Source: an uncultured Holophagae bacterium (GTDB lineage Bacteria > Acidobacteriota > Thermoanaerobaculia > Thermoanaerobaculales > Sulfomarinibacteraceae). From it: a DNA stretch of 64,000 nucleotides. Each line of letters starts with the position of its first letter. Positions within the stretch are counted from its first letter, which is position 1. The translations under genes and the position numbers were made by a program. Shown here piece by piece: positions 2,161 through 45,980 of the stretch. Where the stretch lies: the NCBI GenBank assembly GCA_963844865.1, contig CAWJPY010000006.1:187421-251420 (forward strand). Reading direction: 5' to 3'. A model generated the notes under the pieces. That model was not told the DNA's origin. It saw only the letters and a list, made by a program, of their open reading frames with translations, and ran no database searches.

Positions 2161-3684
2161 ATGAAGCGAAACACGATCCGCTACTGGCTGTCCGGAACCC
2201 TCGGCATCGTGCTCGCCGTGGCCCTGGTGATCATGGTCAACTGGCTGGGCGCGCGGCACTACGTCTCCGGAGACTGGACCTCCTCCAACGTCTACTCGGT
2301 GTCCGCCAAGACCCAGAACATCCTGTCGGAGCTCTCCGAGCCGATCCGGGTGGTGGTCTTCATGACGCCGGCCAGCCCCCTGTACGACCAGGTGCACGAG
2401 CTGCTCAACCGCTATGCGGCGGCGAGCGACAAGATCACGGTGGAGTACATCGATCCCGACAAGGAACCACTGAAGACGCGCCAGCTCGCCCAGCAGTTCG
2501 GCATCTCGGCCGCCGACACCGTGGTCTTCTCCGCCGGTGACCGCACCAAGTACGTGACCGCCGACCAGATGGCCGACTACGACTATGCCGGCATGCAGTA
2601 CGGCCAGTCGCCGAGCCTGAAGAGCTTCAAGGGCGAGGAGGAGTTCACGGCCGCCATCCTGTCCCTGGTGGCGCCCGGCGTGCCCAAGGTGTACTTCGTG
2701 ACCGGGCACGGCGAGCCCAAGCTCGCCGCCGCCGCGGCGCCGGGCGGGGGCAACGCCTCGGAGCGCAGCCTGGCGACGCTGAAAGAGGTCCTCAAGCGCG
2801 ACAACATCGACGCCGAGGAGACCACGCTGCTGGGCGGCAAGGTCCCCGACGACGCCGACGTCCTCGCCATCATCGGTCCCACCCAGCCCTACACCGAGAC
2901 CGAGGTGAAGGTGCTCAAGGACTACCTCGACGGCGGCGGTCGCCTCCTGGTGGCCCTCGATCCTCTCATCCAGCCGGACGGGACCATGCGTTCCACCCGC
3001 CTGGAGGGGCTCCTCTCGGAGTACGGGATCAGCGTCGGCAACGACCTGGTGGTGGACCCGTCGCGCCGCCTGCCGTTCTACGATCTGTCGGCGGTCTACC
3101 TCACCGACTTCCCCGCGGGTCCCCTGTCACAAGGTCTCGAGGGTTCGGCGGCCCTGTTCGTGGTCGCCCGCTCCGTGGCCCCTGCCAGCGGCGGCCAGGC
3201 CAAGGCCGTCGTGGACACCTCGGATGAGGGCTGGGGCGAGACCAACCTCAAGCAGCTCCTGACGGGGCAGCCGGTGGCGAAGGACGCCGCCGACGTCGCC
3301 GGGCCCGTCGCGGTGGGCGTGACCGTGGAGGGCTCCACCAAGCCTGCAGACACCGACACCACACAGGCCGACGGAGACAACGGGAAGCTGGCCGCGGCCG
3401 ATGATGCGACCCCTCCGTCCTACCGCATCGCGGCCTTCGGCGACTCCGACTTCCTGTCCGACTTCGAGATCTCCAACGCCGGCAACCTGACCCTGGCCAA
3501 CAACGCCTTCAGCTGGTTGGCGGCCCGTCAGGCCACCCTCGGCATCGCGGCGCGGCCGGTGGAGCAGGTGAACCTGTTCCTGTCGCAGCAGCAGATGCGC
3601 ACCATCCTGCTCATCACGCTGCTCGGGATGCCGGGCGCCGCGATCGTGCTCGGGGTGCTGGTGTGGCGGAGGCGGCGGCACTAG
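2161..3684 (+). CDS. GldG-like ABC transporter auxiliary protein (N- and C-terminal TM anchors)
   Basis: 507-aa ORF with a GGAGG RBS. It has an N-terminal TM, a large soluble region and a C-terminal TM followed by WRRRRH. It is the third gene of the GldA/F/G-type trio. Confidence 0.8.
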   Translation: MKRNTIRYWLSGTLGIVLAVALVIMVNWLGARHYVSGDWTSSNVYSVSAKTQNILSELSEPIRVVVFMTPASPLYDQVHELLNRYAAASDKITVEYIDPDKEPLKTRQLAQQFGISAADTVVFSAGDRTKYVTADQMADYDYAGMQYGQSPSLKSFKGEEEFTAAILSLVAPGVPKVYFVTGHGEPKLAAAAAPGGGNASERSLATLKEVLKRDNIDAEETTLLGGKVPDDADVLAIIGPTQPYTETEVKVLKDYLDGGGRLLVALDPLIQPDGTMRSTRLEGLLSEYGISVGNDLVVDPSRRLPFYDLSAVYLTDFPAGPLSQGLEGSAALFVVARSVAPASGGQAKAVVDTSDEGWGETNLKQLLTGQPVAKDAADVAGPVAVGVTVEGSTKPADTDTTQADGDNGKLAAADDATPPSYRIAAFGDSDFLSDFEISNAGNLTLANNAFSWLAARQATLGIAARPVEQVNLFLSQQQMRTILLITLLGMPGAAIVLGVLVWRRRRH

Positions 3685-3688
3685 CTTG

Positions 3689-3745
3689 GAATTGAGAATT
3701 CTTGATTAAGAATTACGAGCTTAGAATTCAAAATTGAGAATTACC
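3689..3745. repeat. AT-rich array of eight 7-bp phased units (GAATTGA GAATTCT TGATTAA GAATTAC GAGCTTA GAATTCA AAATTGA GAATTAC)
   Basis: Read directly from the sequence. It starts 5 nt after the TAG stop at 3682-3684. The same unit family recurs at 22046-22144. Confidence 0.85.
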
Positions 3746-3834
3746 AACCCCTCCCCAACCCTGACCGCCTGCCACCGGCTAGGCAGGCACGGAGTCTGGT
3801 CAGTGAGAGTCGGAACGTCCGGGAGGCGTCAAGC

Positions 3835-5241
3835 ATGAAACCGAGGAACCTCGTCGTCCTGACCGTTGTCGTGGCGGTGTTCGCGGCCTTCATCCTCTTC
3901 TACGAGCGCCACCAACCCACCACCGAGGAGGCGCGGCAGCGCGCCGACAAGGTCTTCCCCGATCTCGAGCGCGACCAGGTCCAGACGCTGGCGATCCACA
4001 ACTCCCACGGCGACTTCACCCTCGTCAAGAAGGACGGAGCGTGGCGGCTGACCTCGCCCATCGACTTCCCTGCCGACAGCTCCGCTGTGAGCTCCCTGCT
4101 GGGCTCGCTCACCTCGCTCAAGCAGGAGCGCCGCCTGCAGCCGTCCGAGGTCGAGGCCGGCGCCTACGGCCTGGACTCGCCTCCCCTGAAGGTCACGGCC
4201 ACCACCCAGAAGGGCGCCTCCTACGAGCTGGCGGTGGGCGAGGAGACGCCTCTCGGCTCCAAGCGCGCCGTGCGTCGGGACGACAACAAGGACATCCTGC
4301 TCTGTGCCGGCTGGTTCGTGAAGGACATCGACAAGCCCCTGGACGACTGGCGCTCCCGCAGCGTCCTCGACGTGAGCGCCGACCAGGTCGCCTCGCTGCA
4401 GGTCACGAGCGGCTCAGACCACGTGCAGGTGGCCAAGGAGGGCGAGCTGTGGAAGCTCCTGGAGCCGGTCAAAGACCTCGCCGACCGTGACCAGGTCCGC
4501 GGTGTGATCAACGACCTCGACAGCCTCCGGGTGGAGGAGTTCGTCGACGGACAGCAGGCGCAGCCCGGTGCCCTGGGCCTGGATGCGCCTACCTACCGCG
4601 TGACCGTCATCCGCGACGAGGGCCAGGCCCCCATTGAGCTGGACTTCGGGACGACACGGCAGAAGGACGGGACGACCCAGATCGCCTGCCGGCGCTCCGG
4701 CGACGAGGTGCTCTGGGTGAAGGACGACATCAGCACCCGTCTGGCCAAGGCGCCGGTCCGCTGGCGCTCCCCCAAGGTCTTCCCCTTCGACACGTGGAAC
4801 GTGGACAAGCTGAGCCTCGGCGACGGCGAGAACACGGCCTCCGTCACGCGCGCTGAGGGGCTGTGGAAGACCTCCGCGGGCGGTGAGGTCGACGGCAGCG
4901 CGGTCCAGCAGCGCTTGAGCTCCCTGGCCGGTCTCGAGGCGAAGGAGTTCGACCTGCTGCAGCCGGCCACGGCCAAGATGGGCCAGGCCACGGTGGAGCT
5001 GCGCGCTCCGGGCGCCGACGCTTCCGCCGAGCCGACCACCGTCACCTACACCTTCTATCGGCCCCTGACACAGGGCGGGGACGCCATGGTGACGGTGAGC
5101 GCGCGCTCCACGGTCATGAGCGTGGACGCCGCTGCGGCGGAGAAGATCCTCGCCGATCCCGGCGCCCTGAGCGCGCCACAGCCGGAGCCCACCACAACGC
5201 CCGGTGAGCAAGGATCATCCGAGGCTCACCCGCAGGATTGA
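3835..5241 (+). CDS. DUF4340-like protein (N-terminal membrane anchor), commonly follows gldG-like genes
   Basis: 468-aa ORF with a GGGAGG RBS and an N-terminal TM (LVVLTVVVAVFAAFILF). Synteny with the ABC trio supports the call. The family assignment is from memory. Confidence 0.7.
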   Translation: MKPRNLVVLTVVVAVFAAFILFYERHQPTTEEARQRADKVFPDLERDQVQTLAIHNSHGDFTLVKKDGAWRLTSPIDFPADSSAVSSLLGSLTSLKQERRLQPSEVEAGAYGLDSPPLKVTATTQKGASYELAVGEETPLGSKRAVRRDDNKDILLCAGWFVKDIDKPLDDWRSRSVLDVSADQVASLQVTSGSDHVQVAKEGELWKLLEPVKDLADRDQVRGVINDLDSLRVEEFVDGQQAQPGALGLDAPTYRVTVIRDEGQAPIELDFGTTRQKDGTTQIACRRSGDEVLWVKDDISTRLAKAPVRWRSPKVFPFDTWNVDKLSLGDGENTASVTRAEGLWKTSAGGEVDGSAVQQRLSSLAGLEAKEFDLLQPATAKMGQATVELRAPGADASAEPTTVTYTFYRPLTQGGDAMVTVSARSTVMSVDAAAAEKILADPGALSAPQPEPTTTPGEQGSSEAHPQD

Positions 5242-11095: not shown

Positions 11096-11190
11096 CCGGT
11101 GGCCAGCCCACGTCAAGGGTGCGGAGCCAGCCGGTCCTCGACCGGCTCGCCCTCGACGAGGGCGAGCCCTTGACATGGGCTGGCCACCGG
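11096..11190 (-). other. Compound hairpin in the 5' leader of the four-helix-bundle gene (24-bp outer stem enclosing two inner hairpins)
   Basis: CCGGTGGCCAGCCCACGTCAAGGG (11096-11119) pairs with CCCTTGACATGGGCTGGCCACCGG (11167-11190). The single mismatch is C-A on the plus strand but G-U on the minus (gene) strand. Inner stems are GCCGGT/ACCGGC and CTCGCCCTC/GAGGGCGAG. Confidence 0.6.
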
Positions 11191-11515: not shown

Positions 11516-11590
11516 TGGCTCCGCAGGAGGGATTTGAACCCCCAACCTAGTGGTTAACAGCCACCCGCTCTACCGTTGAGCTACTGCGGA
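11516..11590 (-). tRNA. tRNA-Asn (anticodon GTT), CCA encoded
   Basis: Manual cloverleaf: acceptor TCCGCAG/CTGCGGA, D stem GCTC/GAGC, anticodon loop CTGTTAA, T loop TTCAAAT, discriminator G, then CCA. Total 75 nt. Confidence 0.9.
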
Positions 11591-12602: not shown

Positions 12603-15713
<3,111 letters not shown>

Positions 15714-15906: not shown

Positions 15907-16164
15907 GTCGTATTGCTTGATCGCCCATGTGTTCGTCAGATGTACTTGGTAGCCGGCATCCATCAGTCCGTCCACCAGCCAATACCAGTTGTATGTCGAC
16001 TCCACCGCGATGCCCTCGATCTCTTCCCGGAACGGCTCTAAGAATTCCAGGACCAAGTCGAGATCGTTGCCGATCCGCTTCTCCTTCACGACCTGTTGGC
16101 CCTCCACGAAAACAGAGACCCAGCAATTGTTTGAGTGCAGATCGATACCACAGTACAGTGCCAT
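15907..16164 (-). mobile_element. IS110-family transposase, N-terminal fragment only (truncated)
   Basis: MALYCGIDLHSNNCWVSV...IAVESTYNWYWLVDGL...HLTNTWAIKQY matches the DEDD N-terminal domain of IS110 transposases. Similarity is lost after about 86 codons and the C-terminal domain is absent. Confidence 0.75.
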
Positions 16165-16611
16165 TGGCTCCTCCTTCTCCCACTGCTATCCACAGCGGGT
16201 ACTGTTTTCCCAACAGAGAGCGTAATCGCTCTCCGAAGGGGGAGCCTTCTAGAGGATTCTCAGGAGAAACAAAGTTAACAAAGTTGCTGACTGGTACCAG
16301 ACGGGACCGTGCGGCATGAATCGACCACTGGATTCCACCGCAGAAACGCCGCGAACCTGTCCAAGGTTTGGGGTCCACCTCTGGTATCTGGATCGATGGC
16401 ATCTCTGCAAGCCGCGGCGGATGAAGGAGGGCTAGCCCAGATCATTCATGAGCTGTCGGCTGCGAACGTCGATGCATCCGCGCCAGGCGTGTTTTCTCAC
16501 CTTGGGGTGCTCAACGTACCGACCAGTACGCCTCCGCGCCCCAAGGCGAGAAAGCCCACCTGGCATCGGCGCCTCGCCGCCCTCGCTTCGATACCTCATG
16601 AACCATCCGGG

Positions 16612-18132
16612 CTAGCGTCGAGCGCTGAGAGTCTCTCTTTGGAGGACCTTTCCGTTCAGAATCACCTTCTCGATGGAGTCGTAGGCGCTCAGATCTTCAA
16701 GCGGGTTCTTGCGCAGCAGGAGCAGATCGGCGCGCCTGCCGACTTCAACGCTTCCGACTTCGTTCTCGAGGCCGAAGGCTTTGGCATTGTCGAGGGTGGC
16801 AGCGCGGAAAATGGCGGCGAGCGGCACTCCGCCGCGAGCCCAGGCCTGCATTTCCCAGTAGCCCGCAAGCCCCGGAGGATGACTCCAGCCAAAACCACCG
16901 ACGGCGGAATCGGTACCGAGAAGAAATCGGGCACCTCGCTGCTGCCAGCGACCCATCTCTCTCTCGAAGCGCTGATTGACGAAGTCCAGCGCGCTTGCAA
17001 CTTCGATGGCGAGGCCGTCCTCGCCGAGTGAAGTCCCGGCAATCTGGCGGCCGAAAATCCGAAGGAAAAGGCCCTTCTGCACCTGCGCTTCGGTGCGCAG
17101 GTAATTCACATACGTCGCCGGTAGGACGTCGAGAAGCGCCGGGTCGTCGAGCAGGGTGTCGTCGAAGAGGGTCGCGGTACCGCGGAGCGTCTGCGCCGTC
17201 GGCTGAATCCAGATGCCGCTCGCCGCCACCTCGTCGCCCAGCGCCGTGATTTCAGGAAGGATACTCCCGCCATTGCGAAAGCTCCCCGGCCACTCCCACA
17301 GACCGTGGGCCAGGATATCGACGCCTGTCGCCAGGGCGAAACGGTAGCCGGCCGGGGTGGTGGCGTGCAACACAACGGGCATGCCGCGCTGGTGCGCCTC
17401 CTGCACGACTTCCCGGACGATCTGCTCTGAGGGCAGTGCGAAGCTTGGGCGTTCCGGCCCCGGCCACCACAAGGCCTCCTCGTAGTAGAGCTTGACGCAG
17501 CGGCCTCCGTGTTCCGCGATTGTCGCAACTGTGGCGGCTGGAGTGTGGTCCTCGGGCTCGAAGCCCGCCGGCAAATTCGGGGTCGTGAAGCGGTCGTGAA
17601 GAAAATTGGGATACGCGGCGAAGAACTCCCCCGCATCGTCGAAGTCGGTGGCCATGAAATCGTTCGAGAGCACGAGTCCTTGACCGCAATGATAAAGGTC
17701 GGGGTGCTCCGACGCGTCCTCGAAGCGCTGGTTGGTGGCGAAATCGGCGTTGAGCTCGATAACCGAGGTGTAGCCGAAGTAGAGAAGGCTGCGCGGCAAC
17801 TGCTCGCGGTAGGCGGCGATGAGTTCATCGTAGTGCTCGGTGTAGCGCCGGCTGAGACCGGGTGCGTGGTAGAGGTGGACGTGGCTGTCGATGAGGCCGG
17901 GAATCAGGAAACGGCCCGAGCCGTCGATCGTTTCCTTGGCCGCCCGAGCCTTGCCTGCCGCCTCGATGCTGGTGATCCTGCCCTGGTCGACGCAGACATC
18001 GGCCTGAAAGGGCGCAGGGCGATCGGCCGAAACCACCGTCACGTTCTCGAAACAGAGGTCCGCCGGGGGAGCGGTCGCGCCGCAGGCACCAAGAGATACC
18101 AAAGCGGCCATGAGGATCAGTTTCCTTGTCAT
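16612..18132 (-). CDS. Amidohydrolase family lipoprotein
   Basis: Lipoprotein signal MTRKLILMAALVSLGAC, metal-binding PGLIDSHVHLYH near the N-terminus and GTDS...RADLLLL near the C-terminus. Confidence 0.85.
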   Translation of the reverse strand: MTRKLILMAALVSLGACGATAPPADLCFENVTVVSADRPAPFQADVCVDQGRITSIEAAGKARAAKETIDGSGRFLIPGLIDSHVHLYHAPGLSRRYTEHYDELIAAYREQLPRSLLYFGYTSVIELNADFATNQRFEDASEHPDLYHCGQGLVLSNDFMATDFDDAGEFFAAYPNFLHDRFTTPNLPAGFEPEDHTPAATVATIAEHGGRCVKLYYEEALWWPGPERPSFALPSEQIVREVVQEAHQRGMPVVLHATTPAGYRFALATGVDILAHGLWEWPGSFRNGGSILPEITALGDEVAASGIWIQPTAQTLRGTATLFDDTLLDDPALLDVLPATYVNYLRTEAQVQKGLFLRIFGRQIAGTSLGEDGLAIEVASALDFVNQRFEREMGRWQQRGARFLLGTDSAVGGFGWSHPPGLAGYWEMQAWARGGVPLAAIFRAATLDNAKAFGLENEVGSVEVGRRADLLLLRKNPLEDLSAYDSIEKVILNGKVLQRETLSARR

Positions 18133-18290
18133 CTGCCAGAAACTCGTTTCTTTGGGTTCCGTGGATCACGTCGTTGGGCGAGGTCACTCTCATGGGGAAA
18201 TGATCGATGCCATCAAGTGATACGTGGAACCCGCCCTCTCGGTTCGCGGCGCCGTCGCGCTTCACATCGTCATCCATCGTTTTCGCATGG

Positions 18291-18350
18291 GTGCCAGGTC
18301 CGCAGTTCCGTAGTTGCGAGGCCATAGCTACGGAACTGCGGATCTGGCAC
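18291..18350. repeat. 23-bp inverted repeat (22/23 match) with 14-nt spacer
   Basis: GTGCCAGGTCCGCAGTTCCGTAG ... CTACGGAACTGCGGATCTGGCAC, read directly. It lies between the amidohydrolase start and the methyltransferase fragment. Confidence 0.8.
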
Positions 18351-18379
18351 TTATTCTGACGCCGATGTTCGCCGCCTCC

Positions 18380-18690
18380 TCAGTGCGGGCGGCGCGCCAC
18401 CAGAAAGGCGGTGGTCCCGTTCGCGTCCACATCCGGGCGGGCGATGTCGACGAAACCGGTCTTGGCCATGGCGGCTTCGAGGTCGGCCGAACGCATGATC
18501 ACCACCGGCGGCGCCTTGCCGAGCCACCGCATCGCCGCCAGAATCGGTCGGAAGGGCACCCACGAGTCGGCAAGGCACACCGTCGACGAGGCGAACAGTC
18601 CCCCGGGGCGCAGACGGTCGAAAATCGCCGTGAGCACCTCGCGCCAGTCGGACACGAGGTGCAGGATGTAGGGATAGGAAATTCCTTTCG
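18380..18690 (-). pseudogene. Class I SAM-dependent methyltransferase, C-terminal fragment
   Basis: ISYPYILHLVSDWREVLTAIFDRLRPGGLF is the post-II/III motif region. The N-terminal SAM-binding GxGxG region is missing. Confidence 0.6.
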
Positions 18691-18880
18691 TTCAGTGCCA
18701 GCCTAGCACGGGATTGAGGCGTCTATTCGGGGCCCAAGATGGGATCGGATGCCTCGGACGGTCTCCAATACGGTAGAAACCGGAGCGCGTCCTTGGAAAA
18801 CATGCTTCGAACCCCGGTTCCGCGTCCGGCCGCAGCCGCAATGAACACACCCTGCACAGACGGCCGCGGTCGAGATGGAG

Positions 18881-19814
18881 TCAGGAGGTGGCGGGGGTCG
18901 CCGCGCCTGGCGGTCCGCGGGGAGACCGCGCTTCCGCTTTCGCGAGATGCCTCAGGATCGCGTCGACCACGTCGTGCTCGGTGATGATCGCGACGACCTT
19001 CATCTCCGAGCCGCAGGACGGGCACACCAGCGGATCGACCTCGTAGATCCGCTTGATCAGTTGGGCCCAGCTTCGCCGGAGGGCACGAGCGTCGCGGGCC
19101 TCGGCGCGAGCCGCGCTGGAGTCCGGGTCGGAACCGACACCCTCAACCTTCCCACCTTCAGCCTCCGCCTTCCGCCGCTTGCCCCGCGACACGTTGGAGT
19201 ACCACCCGTAGTACCGCACCAGGTGCCGCCGCGGCTCGGGGATGTGCATGATGACTCGGGCAACAAATTCGGCCGGATCGAAGGCCTCGGCAATGTCGCC
19301 GGCCAGCATGGCCCGACCGTCGTGGCCTCCTTTCGCCCGATAGTGCACCACGCCCTCCCCGCCCCACTGGACCCGCTCGAGGCTGATCGGCGGCCGCATG
19401 ATGTAGCGGGCGAGACGCTCCACCACCGGCTGATCCTCGGGCTCCACCCGCACGCTGTTCTCCACCCCCCTCCCTACACAGACCCACCGGGACGAGCGGG
19501 TGGCCGTAGGGCAGCCACCCGCCCTCTTCAACCCCCATGCCCACGGCCACGGACGCTCGCTCCGGCGGGTTGTGGACCGAAAAGCCGTTGTGCCGCCACG
19601 ACAGCAGCAGCTCGGTGCGCTCCTCGGTAAGAAGCCCGACGTCCCGAAGCACGCGCATCACCTTGTGGCGATAGAGCAGCTCGGCGGCATACTCATCGAC
19701 ATACGCGATCGGCACCCACTCCCAGTCGCGCCTCCAACCACCACGGGACACCAGTGCGTGCACGTGCGGGTGCCATCTCGCCAGATGGCCCGCGGTCTGC
19801 ACCACCGCCACCAT
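18881..19814 (-). mobile_element. IS91-family (Y2, rolling-circle) transposase pseudogene, 5'-truncated and frame-disrupted
   Basis: VQTAGHLARWHPHVHALVSRGG and SWRHNGFSVHN lie in frame A (19158..19814). RLARYIMRPPISLERV...LVRYYGWYSNVSRGKR...CPSCGSEMKVVAII lies in frame B (18881..19531). The N-terminal zinc-binding part is absent. Confidence 0.8.
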
Positions 19815-20118
19815 CCCCGGGCGCAGGGTCTCCTCACCCGTAGGCTTCGGTGTCGTCGCGGTGGACGACGACCCTGAAGACGAAACTCCCTACTTCTTCC
19901 CGGCACCGGTGATCTTCGCCGACGGCTTCGAACTCGGAAACCCCTCGGCCTGGAGCGGCACCACGCCCTGAGCCCCGTCTGGATGGGTGCGATGGGATGG
20001 GGTTGATCTGATGGGTGCCACCTATCAAGGGTGGCACCTATCCTATTCGTTTACGATCAAGGCTGTCTCCGCGTGAACCGAATCCCGCCCACGGCGGCTC
20101 TCCGCCGGCGGAGCTGGG

Positions 20119-21144
20119 CTAGGGGCAAAGATCCTGGCAAGCGTTCCACTCATCCTGGAAGATCCGCCAACACTCCATCAGGGCGTCGATACCATCCTCG
20201 AGGTCAGGGTCTTGGAATTTGTGGTCCTCCTGCTTCCAACAGTTGATCTGAAAGCACTCTCGCAGCGAAGGGTCCGCCCCCGTTCCCGGCAGGGGCTCGG
20301 GGGCCAAGCGCTCGGTGAGATCATCCAGGCAGTCCGCCTCGAGCTCGGGGCAGTCGATCTGAAACGCCCCCTGCTTGGTCGCCGCGCAGGCCCGGAATCC
20401 GATCCTCGCGTTTTTCTCGCAAGCCGACTCCAGCTCGGGACAGCCGGCGCGAAAGAGCCGCCACTCTACGTTGCCACCCGCCGTCTGGTAGATCTGATCC
20501 AAACCTGGAAGAGGCTCCACGTTGGCGTCGAATGTGCCTTCCAGCACGGTTGGGCTACCCCCGGTGTAGCGGCCCTCAAAATAGACCGGCTCGATAACGT
20601 TGTCGCTGCCGCTCCTGGGATCGCTCATCTTGCGGGTGCCCTGGGAGTCGGTGATCTCGATGAGCACCTGGCCGGATTCGGGCACATCCTCCAGCTCGAA
20701 ACCACCCGTGTCGATCCAGTACTTCTTGACGGCGTAGTTGACCCATAACTCCATGTTGCATGCTTTCGGGCCGAGCTTGCGGGCCTTTGCCTGGAGCGTT
20801 CTCGTATCCAGGGTTCGCATCGAGCCTCCGTCACCGCGTTGGATCGCTTCCTGGCTCAAGGTCTCCAGGTAGTCGACGGTGGCGGAGCGGACCTTGTACT
20901 TCACCGTACGCCCCACAGCCTCTTGCCGCTCGAAGTGCACCATCATGGTCCACTCCTTGTGGGCGTTCACAACGACCCGGTCCGCAATGTTCTGGAGTGG
21001 TGAGTCGTCGGGGAGTACCAAGCTCCAGTCGAGCGTGATGAAACCCGACCACGAGTCCTTGGCGGGTTCAGCCCCGGCCGCTACCGTCGAGAGGCTCAAC
21101 AGCAACGCGGTGCCGATTACCGTCACACTTCGAAAGCCAATCAT
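20119..21144 (-). CDS. Secreted hypothetical protein with Cys-rich C-terminus (paralog of the broken gene at 24459-25426)
   Basis: GAGGAG RBS and a signal peptide (ALLLSLSTVAAGA). Blocks shared with 24459-25426: DSWSGFITLDWS/DDWTGMITLEWE, VDYLET, GQVLIEITDSQGTR/GQIVIEITDENGTR and FDANVEP...WRL. I recognise no known domain. Confidence 0.75.
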   Translation of the reverse strand: MIGFRSVTVIGTALLLSLSTVAAGAEPAKDSWSGFITLDWSLVLPDDSPLQNIADRVVVNAHKEWTMMVHFERQEAVGRTVKYKVRSATVDYLETLSQEAIQRGDGGSMRTLDTRTLQAKARKLGPKACNMELWVNYAVKKYWIDTGGFELEDVPESGQVLIEITDSQGTRKMSDPRSGSDNVIEPVYFEGRYTGGSPTVLEGTFDANVEPLPGLDQIYQTAGGNVEWRLFRAGCPELESACEKNARIGFRACAATKQGAFQIDCPELEADCLDDLTERLAPEPLPGTGADPSLRECFQINCWKQEDHKFQDPDLEDGIDALMECWRIFQDEWNACQDLCP

Positions 21145-21524
21145 CCCCGTGCTCCTCGCGGCGCGAAGCGCCGGCAGGTTTTCAGTCCCAGAGACGATCG
21201 GACAGGTCTGGCTGCCTGAGCTATTGTAACACCAAATCTGTGCCAGCCTTTAGCCTGATGGGTACGATGGGTACCACGTTCACAATTGTTGAATTGTGAG
21301 GGGGGCTGGGCAGCGATCCCGAGTTCAAGAGGTGGCTCGCCGACCTCGATACGATACTGCGATCTCACGCCGGAGCTGGCGAATCAACAAGTGTGAACGT
21401 GGCACCCGTTGGGCACCCGTTGCGTTAGCGTTTTGGCGATGAGCTCTTCTCGCGGCAGGGTGTGGAGAGGCGGCTTTGAGAGGTCGGGCATTTGCCCTTT
21501 CCCAAAGCTGAACGAAACGGTCGG

Positions 21525-21716
21525 TCACCCACCGATCTCGGGAATCGAAAGCCCTCGGCAGATCTTCTGCGCCAGTCTATCAGCGATCTCTGTGTGTCGC
21601 GGAACGGTTTCGACGGCCCCCGTGTTCGGGTTGGACCACAACGAATGTGCCGCCCCTTCGCGTTTGAGGACGCAACCGTGTTTGCGGAGGTGCTTGAGGA
21701 GAGCGTTCCGCTTCAT
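21525..21716 (-). CDS. hicA: Type II toxin HicA (mRNA interferase)
   Basis: 63 aa, MKRNALLKHLRKHGCVLKREGAAHSLWSNPNTGAVETVPRHTEI. It overlaps hicB by 4 nt. Confidence 0.9.
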   Translation of the reverse strand: MKRNALLKHLRKHGCVLKREGAAHSLWSNPNTGAVETVPRHTEIADRLAQKICRGLSIPEIGG

Positions 21717-21928
21717 CCAACGGTGATGATCTCTTGAATGGCGTCGTCGGGCACTCCACGCAGGACGTCCTCGCGACGGTCAGCGAGGATCAGCTTGATG
21801 GCCTCCCTCAGGCTGTCCAGGGACTCCTCTTTCGTTTTCCCCTGGCCGTTCGCACCGGGAAGCTCTGGGCAGTACGCGATGAACCACTCGCCGTCGCGCT
21901 CGATGACCGCAGTGAACTGATTGGTCAC
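21713..21928 (-). CDS. hicB: Type II antitoxin HicB (short form, no obvious DNA-binding domain)
   Basis: 71 aa, FTAVIERDGEWFIAYCPELPGANGQGKTKEESLDSLREAI, which is the HicB N-terminal fold signature. Confidence 0.88.
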   Translation of the reverse strand: MTNQFTAVIERDGEWFIAYCPELPGANGQGKTKEESLDSLREAIKLILADRREDVLRGVPDDAIQEIITVG

Positions 21929-22045
21929 GAGGACCTCCCTCTTGCACAGATCATTATGTCATCGAACTGCAGCGAGTTTCATTCTTCACGTCAGGATCAC
22001 CAAGTCGGCACCGTCTCCCAGCCGGGGAAGGGATCAGTGCTGAGG

Positions 22046-22144
22046 CAATTCTCAATTCTCAATTATGAATTTTGAATTACCTCGCAGAAGTTGATGGAAC
22101 ATTGCGATGGAATTAAGAATTGAGAATTCACAATTAAGAACTTG
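22046..22144. repeat. Two AT-rich arrays of five 7-bp phased units each, separated by a 29-nt spacer
   Basis: Array 1 (22046-22080): CAATTCT CAATTCT CAATTAT GAATTTT GAATTAC. Array 2 (22110-22144): GAATTAA GAATTGA GAATTCA CAATTAA GAACTTG. The reverse complement aligns with 3721-3745 (AATTCAAAATT..GAGAATT.CC). Confidence 0.85.
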
Positions 22145-22150
22145 CGATGC

Positions 22151-22878
22151 CTACCACGTCGGCACCGTCTCCCACCCGGGAAAGGGCCAACCTCGATCTT
22201 CCAGCCGGTCGGCGATTGCGCGTCGCGGACGACGCGGAGATTGGTGAGAGTCTTGAGCTTGGCGATCAGCTCCTCGCGCGGCAGGGTATGAAGCGGAGGT
22301 TTGGAGAGGTCGGGCATGGGCCACAATCGAATGGTGTTGTCCTGGCCGGCCGAGACGATCCAGCGTCCGAGAGGGTCGATGAGCACATGGATGATCGAGC
22401 TGTCGTGGCCGAGAAGCAGGTGCGGCTCTTCACCCGTGGCCGGTCCCACGCGAACGACACCGTTGGAATCTCCGGTCACCGCCACGGTGCCTTCCTGGTT
22501 GAGTGCCATTCTCCGGACGTGCAAACCGTGGGTCGTGAGCGCCGTTACGCCACCCGTTTCGAGATCGACGAAAACGGGAGGCCCCGCGGGGTCCTGCATC
22601 GAGTCGCCCTCCCCGTTTTCAGTCATCAGGAGACGCCGTCCGTCCTTGGTGGCGACAAAACCGCTCACGTCATACTCGAAGAGAATCTCGTGATTCCCCG
22701 TGTCAACCTCCCATGCCACGACTCCCTTTGACGTTGCGGTCAGCAGCCGGCCGTCGTTCGCGAAACTCGCGCCTAACCTGAATTCACCGTCGGAGAGACG
22801 GAGAGCCGCCAGCTCCCGCCCCGACGCCACCTCCCACACACGTCTAGTCAGCGAGCTGATCAGGACGATGGCGGCCAT
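22151..22878 (-). pseudogene. WD40-repeat protein, C-terminal fragment (N-terminally truncated, 1-nt frameshift near the end)
   Basis: WD40-like repeats (TGDSNGVVRV, SAGQDNTIRLWPMP). No plausible N-terminus. With one G restored in CCGGGTGGGAG the frame reads PFPGWETVPTW* and stops at 22151. As sequenced the ORF runs on to 22063 through the AT-rich repeats. Confidence 0.65.
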
Positions 22879-23595
22879 CTGCAGCCGGCCCGGTCGAATC
22901 GCGGACGTAGGATACGTTCAGCAGGGCGCCGAAATCACCCATACCGGTTTCCCATCGGTCGCTGATGAGGTATGTCGGGAACCTTGGTATGTGGCTTATG
23001 TTAATTGAAAATGAGCAAACGCTTGCGCAACGGACCTTCGTGACGGGAGAAGCGCCGAGGCGACGGCGTGCCCGATCTGGTCGCGGGGAACGTTTTCCTT
23101 GGTCTTGGCTGTGATCACCATCAAGAGGAGGGGACCGACATCGTGGAGCAGACGGCTGTCATCGCTCAGGAAGTCGAGCTTGCGGTCGTGCTCAATCGGA
23201 GTGCGGATGTGGTGAGTCACACAGTTGGGGAGGGTGGGCGGCGGAGGATCGACGGTGAGGCATTCGCGCTTGGAGAGCCTTGACGCCGACACCGTTGCCC
23301 GCCTCCATCCCCGGCTGGCGCGCGGCGACCTATGACATCGGACGACTTTGGAACCACAGACACGGCACCCATGTTTCCGAGTACGGCCGCGCCGAGGCTG
23401 TGGAGTGGGCCTACCGGGTCAAGAACGCGCTTACCATCGGTGGCCCGATCAACGCCGGGCTGAAAAAGGGCCTCCTGATCGCCCGATCCGTCGCATCGCA
23501 CCCCGGTGACGCCTCGCCAGATTGACACCCTTCATCAGGGGACATAACTTCAGTCTCAAAAGAACAACCGGTATCGGACTGCGGAGGAGGATCTG

Positions 23596-24441
23596 GTGAA
23601 GCTCAGCCGTCGCCTCGTCGTCGCCGCCGCGGTGCTCGCCATCTGCGGACCTGCCATCGCCCAGGAGCACCCGGTCATCAAACCCATCAAGGGCTTCGTA
23701 CTGCGTCCCGCCGCCCAGCAGAAGGTCACGAACTACGACCAGTTCCGTTTCCGGCGCACGGACGCCCAGGGGCACTCCGAGTTCTATGTCAAGAAGGGCA
23801 AGTTCTGGGACCTCGACTACCACAAGCCGATGCCCGACGGCTCGGATGACCGGAGCTTCTCCAGGATCGAGATCGTCGACAACTATGTCGCCGCGGTGAC
23901 CGAGGCGGGCGGCACGATCTACTACAATTATGAAGGGGAGCTGCAGTTCAGTATTCCCCGGCCCGACGGCGGCATCAGCTACGCCCGTGTGATGGCGAGC
24001 GACGGCCGCTACCGGCTGCAGATCATCGACGAGAAGCCGCTCGAGCGGAACCTTGAGTTCACCTCGGCCGACGACATGTACAAGGGCATCGAGGCAGCCG
24101 GCTTCGTGGCCGTGTACGGCATCCACTTCGACACCGACAAGGCCGACCTCAAGGTCGGCGCCGCCAAGACCCTCGAGGAGGTCGTGAAGCTGCTCCAGGC
24201 CCACCCCGATCTGAAGGTGGAGATCCAGGGGCACACCGACTCCACCGGCTCGGATGACCACAACCTCGACCTGTCGCGGCGCCGCGCCGACACCGTCAAG
24301 GCGTACCTGCAGCTCTACGGCATCGCGGCTGACCGGCTGACGACCACCGGCTTCGGCGAGTCCAAGCCGGTGGGCGACAACGCCACCGAGGAGGGCCGGG
24401 CTCTCAACCGCCGGGTCGAACTGCACCGGGTGGGAGAATGA
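23596..24441 (+). CDS. OmpA family protein with DUF4892-like N-terminal domain (copy A)
   Basis: GTG start after GGAGGAGG and a signal peptide. The C-terminal OmpA_C motif is GHTDSTGSDDHNLDLSRRRADTV...NRRVEL. It aligns along its full length with 44626-45477. Confidence 0.88.
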   Translation: MKLSRRLVVAAAVLAICGPAIAQEHPVIKPIKGFVLRPAAQQKVTNYDQFRFRRTDAQGHSEFYVKKGKFWDLDYHKPMPDGSDDRSFSRIEIVDNYVAAVTEAGGTIYYNYEGELQFSIPRPDGGISYARVMASDGRYRLQIIDEKPLERNLEFTSADDMYKGIEAAGFVAVYGIHFDTDKADLKVGAAKTLEEVVKLLQAHPDLKVEIQGHTDSTGSDDHNLDLSRRRADTVKAYLQLYGIAADRLTTTGFGESKPVGDNATEEGRALNRRVELHRVGE

Positions 24442-24458
24442 CGATGTGATTCCACCAC

Positions 24459-25426
24459 ATGGCTATCCTCGGGATCGTTGTCGGTCTGCTGATTTCGGCG
24501 ACTCCGGTGGCCGCCACCGAACCGCCCGAAGCACCGCCGGGATCCGGTGGAAACTCCCTCCCCGACGATTGGACGGGAATGATCACGCTGGAGTGGGAGT
24601 CCGGAATACCCGACGACTCGCCGCTGCACCAGCAAATCGAGCAGGTCTCGATGAGGTACGGAAAGCGGTGGAACCTGTATCTGACTTTGCACGCCGAAAA
24701 TCGCGGCCCGATCAGGGTTCGTTACAAATGCACCCGGGCGCCGGTCGACTATCTCGAGACCTCGGCGACCGTGGGCAAGAACGGCGCCATCAGCACGAAG
24801 GAGATCTGGAAGATCGAGGCCGGCAAACGGATCCTTGACGATCACCAGTGCAATCTGGTGTTGGTGGTCGACTCCAATACAAAGAAACATTGGAGCGAGG
24901 TGGGAAGTTCGAGATTCCCAACGCCACCAAGACCGGACAGATCGTCATCGAGATCACTGACGAGAACGGCACACGAACGGTCGCCAACCCTCTCGACAAG
25001 GAAACCGATGTCGTCGAGCGGTTTCGCTTCGAGGACCGGTACACCGAAAACCGACCGTTGAAGCTGATCGGCCAGTTCGACGCCAACGTGGAGCCCCCGG
25101 CCGGCGTCGACATCACCCACGAGACGGTGGCTGGCGATATCGATTGGCGCCTCTACCGCGGCGTTTGCCCGGATGTGAGAAAACAGTCCTTCGAAGATGC
25201 CGGGAAATAGATGACCAATTGTTTGGATGTCACGCCGGACGAGCACGACGGGCTATGCGAGCCTTACGGCCTCCACAACTGTCTCGTAATGGTCGCCAGT
25301 CCGTCGATGAACTTCTTTGATGTACACGACTGTGTGGAAGACAACTGCACTTGGGAATTGGGCACTCCCGAGTTTGACGGTGCTGTCAACGCACTCAAGG
25401 ACTGCATGGACGAGTGGATTAGATAG
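24459..25426 (+). pseudogene. Broken paralog of the 20119-21144 secreted Cys-rich protein (one frameshift, one in-frame TAG)
   Basis: Three collinear pieces: 24459-24900, 24848-25210 and 25211-25426. The frame shifts at the GGG run 24902-24904. TAG at 25208-25210 is directly followed by ATG. Confidence 0.75.
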
Positions 25427-25692
25427 ACCGAGAAGTGCAATCGGCTTTGCCCCTGAGCGTGTCACCAGGCGTCGCAGGACAGTAACTCCTCGCCCTACCC
25501 CGTCTCGAAAGCGAGCCGAGGCTCGGCCACGTATGAAAGATGGACTCTGCAAGCCTTGAAAGCGTGTGTCCGCGGCTGAGGCAGGATATCGCCGCCGAGT
25601 TGAAGACCGACGCTGGAATGAGATGGCGATGCCGAGTCGTTCAGAGGGCGCCCGGGTTGTTTCTTGATCCCCGGCGGCGCAGCACGGTCCAA

Positions 25693-26172
25693 TCAACCGT
25701 CTCCGACGCCGATGTTGTACGAGATCAGCTTCCATGCTTCGTTTTCGCGCACCAGCTTGAACGAGCACGGAATCTTGGTTCCGCTTGCCAGCGTCACGGT
25801 ACCTTCGAACTCGGCGCCGCTCATATCCACCGAACGGCTGGTAAACGACGTGTCGGTCACGTTGAACAGGTGCTGGTTCGCCGTAACCCCGGCGGAGAAC
25901 TGGTCGAAGGGTTGCGCCTCCTTGAGCGGCGACGAGAAGCAGTCGTAGGCGGCCTCGAGATTGCCGTCAGCGGCCTCGGTAAGGAAGGTTTGAACGACCT
26001 TTTCGGGCTCGGCCGTGGCCTGCTTGACAACGAACAGGATCACGACGATGAGCACGACGAAAAGTGCGATCAGGCCGCCGCACCCGAGGAGAACCCAACG
26101 GAGCCAGGGGCGCGATTTCTGGGATTGCAGGTCTGAGGAATCCGTGAATGCCGCGTCGGTCCTGTCACTCAT
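25693..26172 (-). CDS. Membrane-anchored hypothetical protein (single TM plus about 100-aa extracytoplasmic domain, possibly DUF4864/NTF2-like)
   Basis: 159-aa ORF with TM LLGCGGLIALFVVLIVVILFVV. It lies 57 nt downstream of the ankyrin gene on the same strand. Confidence 0.6.
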   Translation of the reverse strand: MSDRTDAAFTDSSDLQSQKSRPWLRWVLLGCGGLIALFVVLIVVILFVVKQATAEPEKVVQTFLTEAADGNLEAAYDCFSSPLKEAQPFDQFSAGVTANQHLFNVTDTSFTSRSVDMSGAEFEGTVTLASGTKIPCSFKLVRENEAWKLISYNIGVGDG

Positions 26173-26229
26173 GAGTCATGCTTTCGTTCAAACAGCGCGT
26201 CGGTTTTCCAAATCGCCACCGCGGTGTTT

Positions 26230-27390
26230 CTACCAGTCATGTGTCGCCCCGGCCTGCTCGAGGAGTGCCGCGACATCGGTTTTCCCTGTCTGCTGCGTCA
26301 CGGCGAGGGCGGTTGTGCCCTTGTCCGTGACCGCGTTGACATCTGCTCCGTGGGCGAGCAGTGCCTTGACGACGGGAACGTGGCCCGCCTGGGATGCGAC
26401 CATCAACGGGGTCCAGCCTCCCCGGGCACGGGCGTTGACGTCGGCACCGTGGGAGAGCAGCGAGTTTACGATCTCGAGCTTGCCGTCGAACGAGGCCGCA
26501 ACAAGGGCGGTCGTTCCGTCGTTTTTCGTTGCGTTGGCGTCGGCTTTGGCGGCGAGCAGGGCTTCGACCACGTCGGACCAGCCCTCACGGGCGGCCAGCA
26601 GCAGAGCCGTGGTTCCATCCGTGGCGGCGGCATTGACGTCAGCACCCGCCGCGATCAGTTCCTGCACGACCTCGGTGTGACCATTCTGCGTCGTCACCAG
26701 CAGCGCCGTCCAGTCGTCACGTGCTCGAGCGTTGACGTCGGCGCCCCGCGAGATCAGCAGTGCGAGGGTTTCGAGATGGTCGTTCTGAGCCGCCAACATC
26801 AGTGCTGATCCGCCGTCCTTCGGCTGGATATCGATCGCAGCTCCACCGTCGAGCAGCACGCGCACCGTCTCCGTCCGTCCGTTCTGGGCTGCCTTCATCA
26901 ACGCCGTGGTGCCGTTCAAGTTGTGCGCCGCAGTGTCAGCGCCTCGACTCAGCAGCGTCGACACCGTTTGGTCGTGGCCGTTCTGAGCCGCCAACATGAG
27001 AGCCGTCCAGCCTTCGTCGTTGGCGTCGTCGATGTCGGCTCCCGCGTCCGCAAGCATCTCCAGGGTGGCCGTGTGGCCGTTCTGGGCAGCGAGCATCAGC
27101 GTCGTCCAACCACCCTTGATCGTCGAACTCACGCCAGCTCCCCTCTCCAGCAAAACCCGCACGGTCTCTGTGAATCCCCCTTGAGCCGCAAGAGCCAAAG
27201 CGGTGGCGCCCTCGGGCGTCCTCGACTCAATGTTGGCTCCGCGCGCCAGCAGTTCGACGACCGAGTCTGTTCTTCCGTTCATTGCCGCGTCGCGAAGCTC
27301 GTAGCCGAGATCCTCTGCGCCGGTGATGGCCGGCGCGAGAAAGGCAGCGGCCCACAGGAGAACCCACACACGGAGTGATCGTCTGCGCAT
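26230..27390 (-). CDS. Secreted ankyrin-repeat protein (about 11 ANK repeats)
   Basis: ATG 27390 gives the signal peptide MRRRSLRVWVLLWAAAFLAPAITGA. It is followed by tandem 33-aa units of the form GxTALMLAAQNGHxxxVxxLLxxGADxN. Confidence 0.9.
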   Translation of the reverse strand: MRRRSLRVWVLLWAAAFLAPAITGAEDLGYELRDAAMNGRTDSVVELLARGANIESRTPEGATALALAAQGGFTETVRVLLERGAGVSSTIKGGWTTLMLAAQNGHTATLEMLADAGADIDDANDEGWTALMLAAQNGHDQTVSTLLSRGADTAAHNLNGTTALMKAAQNGRTETVRVLLDGGAAIDIQPKDGGSALMLAAQNDHLETLALLISRGADVNARARDDWTALLVTTQNGHTEVVQELIAAGADVNAAATDGTTALLLAAREGWSDVVEALLAAKADANATKNDGTTALVAASFDGKLEIVNSLLSHGADVNARARGGWTPLMVASQAGHVPVVKALLAHGADVNAVTDKGTTALAVTQQTGKTDVAALLEQAGATHDW

Positions 27391-27450
27391 TGCAATCCCC
27401 CTGAACGAAGCGCCTCGCGACTCCCTTGTCACTCGTAACGGTTCCCCTAG

Positions 27451-27479
27451 AATGTAGGCTCTCCGAGCTGTGACGACAA
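27451..27479 (-). promoter_or_regulatory. Candidate sigma-70 promoter for the ankyrin operon (TTGTCG-17 nt-TACATT)
   Basis: Read on the minus strand. It lies about 60 nt upstream of ATG 27390. Confidence 0.3.
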
Positions 27480-27525
27480 CACGCGAAGCGATGCCTGTCG
27501 CGGCATTGACGGAATCGCCCGCGTT

Positions 27526-27590
27526 CACTTGAATCCGGTGGTGGCGGGATTGGTTGACGACCCCGCCGAGCATGTGCCCGATTCGGCACC
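27526..27590 (+). pseudogene. Short remnant of an IS200/RayT-like (Y1) transposase C-terminus
   Basis: HLNPVVAGLVDDPAEHVPDS resembles the conserved YIHxNPVRAGLVxxPxxYPWSS block. Nothing else of the gene remains. Confidence 0.3.
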
Positions 27591-28662
27591 GCAGGCGTCT
27601 GCCGGCCCTGTCACGAGGGACCAGCTACCGCCGGTGTGGGACCTCGTGGGGCTCTGTCGGCGCGCCCCCCTGCGGGCACGCCCAGCCGGGTCGATCGACG
27701 CCGACCCAGATCCAGTTGCAGTGCCGCGGGCAGAAGCGAACCATGCCGGAGGTGAGGGGATAGGAAGCTCCTTTCGCGCACCTCTGAAGGTGAACGACTC
27801 GGTGTCACGTATCACAACCTCACAACACTGACTTGCCGCGGTCCTCGCTTTCTTTCTGCCAAGCTGCAACCAGGCTCTCCAACCGCTCGTGCCGGTGCCA
27901 CCAATGCCACGAGCGACAAGACCGGGCGCGACCGAAACCAGTGGCGCCATGCTGTACGACCCTCTCACGCAAGGTCGAACCACCAAGACGACTATCGCCC
28001 TCAATCCCACAACTACCTCCATTTCAGGAGGATATCGATCCGACCGAGGTCGTATATATCTCGCTTGCGGGCCCCCGCACGACGACCCCGGAAGCGGCCG
28101 TGGCCGTGGGCGTGGGGGTCGGTACGAGGGTGGGGGACGCCGTACGGCCACCCGCTTGTGGGGTCGGGGCACCGCGCGAGGGTGGGTGTGGGAGGAGGGG
28201 CGGTGGACAGGGGGGCGCGAGTAACACGCCCACGGCTGCGACCGCGACTGAGCGTTTGCCCGCTCCTGCGGCAATCGCTGCAGGCGCTCGGAGGCGGGGG
28301 CGGCAACGGCGCCCATGGCCAGGAGCGCGCCCATACCACTCATTCCTCCGGCGCTGCTCCCACTTGGTCGACACACGTTCCCACACCACAAACCCGAAGC
28401 GGCCGTGGCCGTAGGCGGAGGGGTCGGCACGACGGCAACCGCGGCCACGGACGACTCACGTGCACGAAACGGAATCGTGGTGTACACTCCAGCGATCGGA
28501 GAAACAGGTGCCCTCGGTCCGTGCTCGTTGGCGCGGGCCGTTTTCAGCGTCACCTCCCGCGACGACGTCGGCCACGCGCGGACCGCGGAGCACGGAGAGG
28601 AGTCCGCAATGAAGAGAGGCGCCCTGCTGCTGTCAATCATCTTCCTGATCACCGTGTAGGCT

Positions 28663-43242: not shown

Positions 43243-43333
43243 ACGAGGCCTTGGCCATACCCACCTGTCTGGTCCGCCACTCCGTCCTCGTCGAGCTTGT
43301 GGGAGGTCGGTGCCGGTCCGTCTCCGACCCCGG

Positions 43334-45477: not shown

Positions 45478-45980
45478 GGCGACCTCCAGTCGGGTGCAAG
45501 AAGTCCCCTTCTTGCCCAGACGCCGGGCAACGCTTCATCTGCATGACTCCAATTGGGGCCCTGCCTTAGTTGTATGGCGCCCTCGTTGAGGCGTCAACTC
45601 AAGATTGGTGCCACGGGCGTCACGTTGACAATGTTGTGGCGGCCCTGCGCGTGAAAGGGAAGATGCTTTGAAGGCGGAAGATCTTGAACGCGGTTTGCGC
45701 GACGTTCACATGGGGTTCTCGCTGGGCGATAGTGTGTTCGAAGACGAGAACGAGACGGTCACGGTGTGGGTGGGCCTATGGGTACGCGGAGGCTGCTCGG
45801 CCGCGTAACGAGGCCCGTGCGCTTCTACCGCGAATGGACCATCCGGATCAGGAGTCCTGCGAGCCAACAGTCGCTGCGATACAGAAAGGTGACCATTCCT
45901 CTCTGACTGGCTCGGCGACGATCCGGGTCAGACATTCTTGAGGTCGTTTCTCCTGCCACCAATCGAGCTCACTCATGCAC

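Follow-up and report, generated by a model that had tools for sequence, protein, structure and literature searches.

We examined a stretch of 64,000 nucleotides (nt) from an uncultured Holophagae bacterium of the Thermoanaerobaculia (Acidobacteriota; GenBank assembly GCA_963844865.1, contig CAWJPY010000006.1, positions 187,421 to 251,420 of the forward strand), here called the window, in which a short AT-rich tract of 7-nt units (heptads) lies between two genes of a transport operon. The gene ahead of the tract encodes a protein whose homologues are named 'GldG family protein' and come from Thermoanaerobaculales and Acidobacteriota; its top match besides its own sequence has 70% identity. The open reading frame (ORF) behind the tract, at 3835-5241, matches PF14238 (DUF4340). 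Judged from its sequence, the tract at 3689-3744, referred to here as locus 1, appears to derive from a heptad-armed extragenic palindrome as its surviving left arm, followed by a C-rich half-centre and a decayed right arm. The features of the locus are the following.

2161-3684, plus strand: GldG-family ABC-transport auxiliary gene, identified by Pfam matches (PF09822, PF23357, PF23355) and the names of homologues; its TAG stop codon (3682-3684) precedes the array
3689-3744, no strand: arm A, eight contiguous heptads, GAATTGA GAATTCT TGATTAA GAATTAC GAGCTTA GAATTCA AAATTGA GAATTAC
3745-3762, no strand: C-rich left half of the element centre, CAACCCCTCCCCAACCCT, which lines up with CC(N)CCCACCC half-centres in elements both orthologous and paralogous to this one
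3767-3788, no strand: small local hairpin in the RNAfold prediction of the spacer, GCCTGCC-ACCGGCTA-GGCAGGC, sitting where the G-rich right half-centre was lost
3790-3820, no strand: putative decayed remnant of arm B, CGGAGTC TGGTCAG TGAGAGT CGGAACG TCC, which aligns under the CCGAACT/CCGAATT arm B heptads of relatives
3821-3837, plus strand: GGGAGG resembling a Shine-Dalgarno sequence, and the start codon of the DUF4340 gene (ATG at 3835), which closes the spacer on the right; GAGG-ATG also follows arm B in relatives

A phased array behind the gldG-like stop codon

The tetranucleotide CTTG separates the TAG from the first heptad, and the array ends 90 nt before the next ATG, so that it lies nearer the upstream stop (4 nt away) than the downstream gene. 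A preliminary description of this DNA had reported eight heptad-phased units with an invariant AATT core, forming an AT-rich tract in GC-rich DNA directly after the gldG-like stop. We find the phasing to be clearly non-random: the pattern AATTN3AATTN3AATT, allowing up to one mismatch, has nine matches in the window, all of them within locus 1 or a second array at 22046-22144 (locus 2), against 0.00 in 100 shuffles. The composition was also described correctly, at 72% AT for the tract against about 67% GC for the window, and the two loci are the only 57-nt stretches of the window with at least 65% AT. The AATT core itself is real, being present in six of the eight units, but it is not invariant, because unit 3 carries GATT and unit 5 AGCT in its place.

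Both loci are intergenic. They recur base for base in two Logan contigs, assembled independently from run ERR11523667, and neither is therefore a quirk of one assembly.

Arm A folds on itself weakly (-12.1 kcal/mol, z -2.85). The segment at 3790-3820 is no longer complementary to arm A and does not pair with it in the fold, and the local hairpin at 3767-3788 has no counterpart in the spacers of relatives that we aligned. The half-centre at 3745-3762 does have such counterparts, for example 'CCCTCCCAACCACCC' in one relative (L164) and 'ccaaccacccctccc' in another (L193). Lying inside the gldFG-DUF4340 operon, the locus 1 copy is almost certainly transcribed; it is most likely a decaying relic that has lost its partner arm and has no function of its own.

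The gldG-DUF4340 spacer of related genomes carries inverted pairs of arrays

A scan of GTDB representative genomes gave 80 labelled loci (1.25 Mb) from metagenome-assembled genomes (MAGs) of Thermoanaerobaculia, Thermoanaerobaculales and Ca. Sulfomarinibacteraceae. The gene order ABC ATPase, permease, GldG, DUF4340 and PPDK-like is kept in relatives. Among the first four syntenic loci, two have heptad arrays that start at the stop codon and consist of different units (GAAAGTC and AAAGTCC); in both, a reverse-complement array comes about 30-50 nt later. Across the whole sample, heptad arrays start within about 30 nt of the GldG stop, and mostly within 15 nt, in 20 of the 80 genomes. They are usually two in number, inverted, and 26-53 nt apart. 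Most of the other genomes have a gldG-DUF4340 spacer of only 3-34 nt.

In a layout common to the occupied spacers, a first arm of four or five heptads stands between a few and about 20 nt behind the stop codon; it is followed by a centre that is first C-rich and then G-rich (for example CCCGCCCACCCC...GGGGAGGTTGGGCGGG), by the complementary heptads, and by GAGG and the ATG. Their units include GAATTAG, GAATTCG, GAATTTT, GAATTCT, GGATTTC and AAAGTCC. When 17 gldG-DUF4340 spacers were aligned with MAFFT (alignment A2), the heptads of the window matched the phase of arm A in the relatives, while the CCAACCCCTCCCC / CCAACCCCTCCCCAACCC of the window lined up with their C-rich half-centres. In a neighbour-joining tree of GldG, only two clades have long spacers: the window's own, where they are patchy, and a clade of 16 taxa, where every member has one.

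Four relatives hold a long palindrome with non-heptad arms in the same spacer (L128 11477-11600, L133 6268-6385, L143 2480-2598 and L173 5668-5784). These palindromes, such as ATTTTCGGCGGGG...CCGCCGAAAAT, have fold energies between -50 and -61 kcal/mol, so that a hairpin is retained in this spacer even without heptad periodicity of the arms.

Heptad-armed palindromes are abundant in Thermoanaerobaculia and adjoin stop codons

We searched the 80 loci with a lag detector that calls four copies with at least 75% self-match whose best period equals the lag. Period-7 arrays number 222, compared with 22 for period 5, 55 for period 8 and 13 for period 9. Inverted pairs account for 91 of the 222 (41%), mostly with 26-53 nt between the arrays, and the modal arm in these 91 paired arrays has four units; locus 2 has 5 + 5 and locus 1 has 8. 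The centres share a CCCACCC...GGGTGGG theme. Together these data show a family of the form [4-5 tandem 7-nt units] - [CC.CCCACCC ... GGGTGGG.GG centre] - [units as reverse complement] that is abundant in Thermoanaerobaculia MAGs, and they establish this architecture along with the position of the family beside stop codons and its presence at the gldG spacer of relatives.

The units are diverse. The commonest canonical ones are AATTCCG, AAATCCG, AATTAGG, AAAATTC and AAAACTC, and AATT is the commonest tetramer, found in 77 of the 222 units. Unit types vary from array to array within single genomes, with GAAAGTC, GAATTCC, AAGGTTA, GCGTGCG and CAGTTGG all occurring within 21 kb; GC-rich units such as GCGTGCG and CCCGAGT are often present in the same 21 kb. 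The units GAATTNN, CGGAATT and GGATTTC contain no G3 run that would allow a G-quadruplex.

Location directly 3' of genes, which the preliminary description had seen in the window, proves to be a property of the class: the edge of a paired-array element in the relatives lies a median of 3 nt from the adjacent stop codon. Paired arrays lie outside called genes in 43 of 46 cases, and single arrays in 109 of 131. Divergent spacers hold only one of 42 pairs, although they make up 16% of spacers by number and 35% by length (nominal p 0.006 by number).

Array density ranges from 0 to 7.5 per 10 kb among the related MAGs (loci L127-L206), a spread of more than ten-fold. Array-rich loci mostly have a GC content of 0.60-0.66 and array-poor loci one of 0.68-0.72, the genome of the window being among the poor. 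Similar arrays are found in viral contigs from IMG/VR that match SAATTNN x4 (L002-L121), where the matches listed contain at least 413 arrays of diverse units in 1.05 Mb. Examples among the matches listed are L091, with 32 arrays in 8.6 kb, and L024, L016 and L051; some of the arrays in these matches form inverted pairs with a short spacer or none, and many of the contigs are 50-70% GC. Since heptad arrays also occur in viral contigs, sometimes by the dozen in one contig, the phenomenon is broader than the Thermoanaerobaculia lineage.

The arms stay complementary while their units change

The units differ among species, yet arm B complements arm A each time: GAATTAG is paired with CTAATTC, GGATTTC with GAAATCC, and AAAGTCC with GGACTTT. 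Folding each spacer on its own gives hairpins that join arm A to arm B, the most stable reaching -83 kcal/mol.

We tested co-variation of the arms on alignment A2 with a structure that we specified ourselves, using 500 shuffles and slid controls for comparison. On this structure 78.6% of cells are paired, compared with 73.4 +/- 0.9% in the shuffles. The covariation score is 0.245, a value that none of the 500 shuffles reaches, against 0.163 in the shuffles. Pairs changed on both sides number 17, a count matched by 3 of the 500, against 11.2 in the shuffles. The slid controls all gave lower values.

Among 30 co-directional elements, the arms contain 74 G.U and 78 A.C mismatches on the sense strand. 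Selection at the RNA level, which would be expected to leave an excess of G.U, is therefore unsupported. Fold energies of the sense and antisense strands show no consistent bias either. The complementarity of the arms is strand-symmetric and thus looks like a property of the DNA.

Locus 2 is a complete member of the family

The kinship of locus 1 with the array at 22046-22144, proposed in the preliminary description, is upheld, and that array is moreover composed of two inverted complementary arrays of five units around a centre of 29 nt. Locus 2 is thus an intact, complete member of the heptad-palindrome family. The element and the repeat that flanks it comprise the following features.

22046-22080, no strand: first arm, CAATTCT CAATTCT CAATTAT GAATTTT GAATTAC
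22081-22109, no strand: centre of 29 nt, holding a small stem TCGCA...TGCGA
22110-22144, no strand: second arm, GAATTAA GAATTGA GAATTCA CAATTAA GAACTTG, the inverted complement of the first arm
21999-22032, minus strand: distal copy of a 34-nt direct repeat, reading PFPGWETVPTW and then TGA
22153-22186, minus strand: proximal copy of the 34-nt direct repeat, reading PFPGWETVPTW and then TAG, 1 nt out of frame with the WD40 ORF 22063-22878

Two inverted repeats were detected across locus 2, one of 25 nt at 84% (I1) and one of 18 nt at 94% (I2), their halves about 29-39 nt apart. The hairpin has a predicted energy of -29.8 kcal/mol (z -4.75) on the minus strand and of -24.3 kcal/mol on the other; the minus strand, where it is more stable, is the sense strand of the gene upstream of the element. 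The unit types of its arms are nearly those of an element in one of the relatives (L146, 8630-8741).

Locus 2 lies 6 nt beyond the TAG at 22151-22153 that ends the minus-strand PFPGWETVPTW reading. The two copies of the 34-nt repeat differ at three positions, all synonymous third positions, and end in different stop codons (TGA and TAG). The distal copy is in frame, but truncated by a stop codon within the array. This flanking repeat is specific to locus 2 and not general in the heptad-palindrome family, and apart from the sequence of the window itself, no further gene end coding for PFPGWETVPTW was found in the fetched loci. The repeat may be what is left of the 3' end of a paralogue, or may stem from a conversion event.

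The element precedes a promoter-like site for hicBA by about 65-160 nt. HicB here has 71 amino acids and a single domain, UPF0150-like, and no DNA-binding domain was detected in it. A Pfam scan of eight neighbouring proteins found no ribbon-helix-helix (RHH) domain.

The surroundings of locus 2 differ in composition from most of the window. GC content is lower (0.59-0.64) at about 16000-28000 and at 43000-46000 than in the rest of the window (0.66-0.74). The first of these regions starts beside a tRNA-Met gene (15636-15712) and contains, besides the locus 2 element, the hicAB pair (21525-21928, minus strand) and transposase-like ORF fragments at about 18.9-19.8 kb; it is probably a genomic island. 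Two paralogous ORFs in it, at 20119-21144 (minus strand) and 24459-25210 (plus strand), have no Pfam matches. They have the motifs ITLDWS..PDDSPL and ITLEWESGIPDDSPL in common and, later, VEPLPG and VEPPAG. The second is split into overlapping frames at 24459-25061 and 24848-25210, which suggests from the reading frames a frameshifted copy.

Other palindromes in the window

An unrelated palindromic repeat, GGTGCCWGGCACC, has seven copies in two clusters (57936-58120 and 60834-60942), against 0.29 expected. It forms inverted pairs (I9, I10, I13, I22) and a 42-bp tandem repeat of 2.5 copies at 60882-60987, and it looks like a repetitive extragenic palindromic (REP)-type element of the window genome. 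Strong local palindromes are also present at 11096-11190 (arms of 24 nt) and 18291-18350 (arms of 23 nt), with 96% complementarity between the arms; the former lies about 330 nt from a tRNA-Asn gene (11516-11590).

Origin of the heptad-armed palindromes

Our preferred reading, to which we assign a probability of about 0.6, is that these elements are extragenic palindromes with heptanucleotide simple-sequence-repeat arms, homogenised by slippage within each arm and by palindrome-templated correction between the arms. We infer such a largely neutral process of slippage plus correction from the occurrence of a palindromic family beside stop codons. Replication slippage in steps of 7 nt would create the arrays and keep the units uniform within an arm, and templated correction between the arms of the palindrome would keep them matched. 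A full element can fold into a hairpin whose stem spans roughly 50-60 bp, or into a cruciform. Elements would be retained at sites that tolerate an insert able to form a hairpin, namely gene 3' ends and tight operon junctions, a niche like that of REP sequences; folding would loop the insert out and bring the stop codon and the next ribosome-binding site (RBS) together.

Several observations weigh against slippage plus correction. Strain-level variants in unit number, which would show slippage directly, were not found: the 22-nt gene-end flank, when searched in metagenomes, gave a single unrelated match due to chance, an exact-protein look-up of the DUF4340 protein returned no match, and the Logan contigs, being identical to the window, supply no variant. 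The 7-nt length of the unit is left unexplained by slippage and correction. Well-formed elements persist at one spacer even though GldG has diverged to roughly 60% identity with that of the window, a persistence that could equally reflect selection for function. The co-variation statistics are inflated, as the structure was taken from the same alignment and the sequences are related, and RNAalifold run on alignment A2 gave no consensus structure; the matching of the arms is nonetheless evident on reading the sequences. The positional counts represent about 5-10 independent orthologous spacers, so that nominal p-values are overstated. Finally, the window genome is itself array-poor, with two loci in 64 kb.

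A functional RNA hairpin in intercistronic regions or 3' untranslated regions, acting as an RNase III site, as a barrier to 3'-5' exonucleases or as a device for stop-RBS translational coupling, is possible, though we would give it perhaps one chance in several. It would account well for elements that adjoin stop codons in co-directional and convergent spacers and are nearly missing from divergent ones, and for an arm B that ends just ahead of GAGG-ATG in the gldG spacer. Retention of the element throughout the 16-taxon clade, the co-varying arms and the stronger locus 2 hairpin on the sense strand of the upstream gene point the same way. Against it stand the equal numbers of G.U and A.C mismatches and the fold energies unbiased between strands. 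There is also no terminator-like T-run, most genomes of the class lack the element at the gldG-DUF4340 junction, and the copy in the window has lost its partner arm while the operon is intact. Nor would an RNA hairpin account for the heptad periodicity.

A more speculative proposal, which we rate as rather unlikely, would make the heptad-armed palindromes of Acidobacteriota, Xanthomonas, Geobacter and many phage contigs a single widespread and unrecognised class of self-homogenising DNA element, defined by arms of 4-5 units of 7 nt, inverted pairing around a short centre and a location beside stop codons. The 7-nt step and the concerted evolution of the arms would then come from a dedicated activity, such as a structure-specific nuclease or polymerase or a binding protein, and not from passive slippage. 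Should this be true, the orthologous series, in which units vary at one spacer but the arms complement each other every time, would offer a first means of studying that activity by comparison.

The preliminary description had listed a small mobile repeat among its options. This was the closest of them insofar as the feature is a repeat element 3' of genes, but the mobility it implied seems unlikely. A non-autonomous mobile element of the miniature inverted-repeat (MITE) or REPIN type, copied by a transposase encoded elsewhere, would agree with palindromes that number several per 21 kb in some genomes, with a long spacer that is present in some relatives and absent from others, and with the common centre theme. 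Different loci of one genome also tend to share a unit type, with 43% of pairs within one mismatch against 26% of unrelated pairs, a genome effect that is borderline (permutation p about 0.05). However, orthologous elements share unit type equally often (44%), which points to vertical descent. The centres of elements in the same genome are no more alike (0.596) than those of orthologous elements (0.589), and there is accordingly no sign of recent copying. Flanking direct repeats of at least 8 nt around 46 elements were not above control (mean score 6.04 against 6.12), duplications of 2-5 bp being below the resolution of this test, and no transposase was linked to the elements, though no genome-wide search for one was made. 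We consider a mobile element decidedly unlikely.

Sites for a DNA-binding protein, whether RHH heptads of the omega type or targets of an AT-seeking nucleoid protein, which would make the arrays an operator, a centromere or an insulator, seem highly improbable. The 7-bp phasing and the four to five contiguous units per arm do resemble the omega operators of pSM19035, and locus 2 lies upstream of the promoter-like site for hicBA. 'Global regulator binding sites' were also proposed for similar paired arrays in Geobacter (PMC2700814). However, the units vary so widely within one genome, some of them being GC-rich (GCGTGCG and CCCGAGT), that no single sequence-specific or AT-seeking protein fits all arrays. 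The arrays lie at 3' ends and not at promoters, the only regulator candidate beside locus 2, the small HicB, lacks a detected DNA-binding domain, and a 7-bp phase set against the helical repeat of 10.5 bp would not be expected to give planar curvature. An H-NS-like reading of the AT-rich tracts was rejected, given GC-rich units in the same genomes and arrays at the 3' ends of genes.

The suggestion of an intrinsic terminator fails as well, no hairpin followed by a T-run being found at 3400-4000 or 21700-22400. Promoter and terminator scans gave no signal in the arrays that would explain them, and Rfam searches of the window and five array-rich loci returned only tRNAs. Chance AT-rich spacing without meaningful repeat structure, favoured by nothing other than the degenerate units 3 and 5, is refuted by the phased matches, by the uniqueness of the two AT-rich stretches in 64 kb, and by homologous arrays at the same spacer of relatives.

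Relation to described repeats

The preliminary description had stated that no element of this form was described. Similar arrays are in fact on record in Xanthomonas (PMC4692102) and Geobacter metallireducens (PMC2700814), and the STRR and TAACTGA arrays (PMC4679880) are related. Xanthomonas genomes contain about 186 GGGAATC heptamer arrays each, mostly intergenic and most with four units (Rehm et al., 2015, PMC4692102). At 70-75 sites two arrays stand on opposite strands, convergent and close together; the mean distance of arrays from the upstream ORF is 28 nt, shorter than that from the downstream ORF; and related species differ in array length but agree in whether an array is single or paired (PMC4692102). 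Our elements resemble these in the 7-nt unit, in having about four units, in the inverted pairs and in lying near the upstream ORF, and GGGAATC shares GGAAT with the CGGAATT and GGAATTC units found here. Unlike them, the AATT-type units here cannot form G-quadruplexes, whereas the Xanthomonas units have a G3 tract and were interpreted as G-quadruplex formers. Our elements also belong to another phylum, have many unit types per genome, and carry a C-rich/G-rich centre that completes the palindrome.

Aklujkar et al. (2009, PMC2700814) described 'class 1-4 putative global regulator binding sites' and GGACCGG elements in G. metallireducens. In these, a hepta- or octanucleotide is repeated in tandem four or five times, most arrays form opposite-strand pairs, and the genome has copies in the tens. 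Arrays of four to five units in inverted pairs are common to both systems. The Geobacter units, in contrast, are MTYCTGA, GTTGCTYN and GGACCGG, and the regulator role was proposed there without tests and without comparison of orthologous sites.

Heptanucleotides are the most over-represented long simple-sequence repeats (SSRs) in many bacteria, and polymerase slippage by 7 nt has been proposed for them (Mrazek, 2007, as reported in PMC4679880 and PMC4692102). The STRR repeats of cyanobacteria are likewise tandem 7-nt units (Mazel, 1990, as cited in PMC4692102 and PMC4679880), and TAACTGA arrays occur just upstream of start codons (MacGregor, 2015, PMC4679880). With STRR, long SSRs and TAACTGA arrays our elements share tandem 7-nt units, a mostly intergenic location and several unit types per genome. 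STRR and TAACTGA repeats, on the other hand, are mostly single direct arrays, and an inverted pair with a conserved centre is not among the features stated for them.

REP sequences, bacterial interspersed mosaic elements (BIMEs) and REPINs are extragenic, hairpin-forming and of high copy number, and occupy co-directional and convergent spacers within transcription units. A REPIN consists of two inverted arms around a short spacer. The REP arm is a conserved sequence of 20-40 nt whose copies are near-identical within a genome and tied to a RAYT transposase. The heptad palindromes are like REP sequences in being extragenic and near-absent from divergent spacers. They are unlike them in that their arms are tandem heptads and that copies within one genome differ in both unit and centre.

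The operator of the RHH protein omega of pSM19035 is built from contiguous 7-bp units, direct and inverted, with 7-10 per site. Its heptads have the consensus WATCACW and lie, together with the omega gene, in the promoters of plasmid copy-control and partition genes. Here the units are GAATTNN or of many other types, locus 1 is intercistronic in an ABC-transport operon, and the scanned neighbours include no RHH domain. The elements differ from omega-type operators on every defining point tested, and the operator or centromere origin entertained in the preliminary description is unsupported: units are heterogeneous and none is WATCACW, sites are at 3' ends, and no RHH domain was found in HicB. 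The feature is instead an Acidobacteriota, AATT-core member of a known but unexplained kind of element.

Implications

The tract of the window is most likely a decaying non-coding relic in an operon, and annotating it as an operator, a centromere or a terminator would be wrong. Such arrays break short-read assemblies and can be mistaken for regulatory sites. The window copy itself is ordinary and of little weight; of more interest is the comparative series to which it led. Although records of heptanucleotide repeats in bacteria go back to 1990, neither their origin nor their role is agreed on. The series from Thermoanaerobaculia offers orthologous elements at fixed spacers in dozens of genomes, in which units drift and arms stay matched. 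It makes testable whether slippage with palindrome correction or a dedicated activity maintains the elements, and at which level, DNA or RNA, they are constrained.

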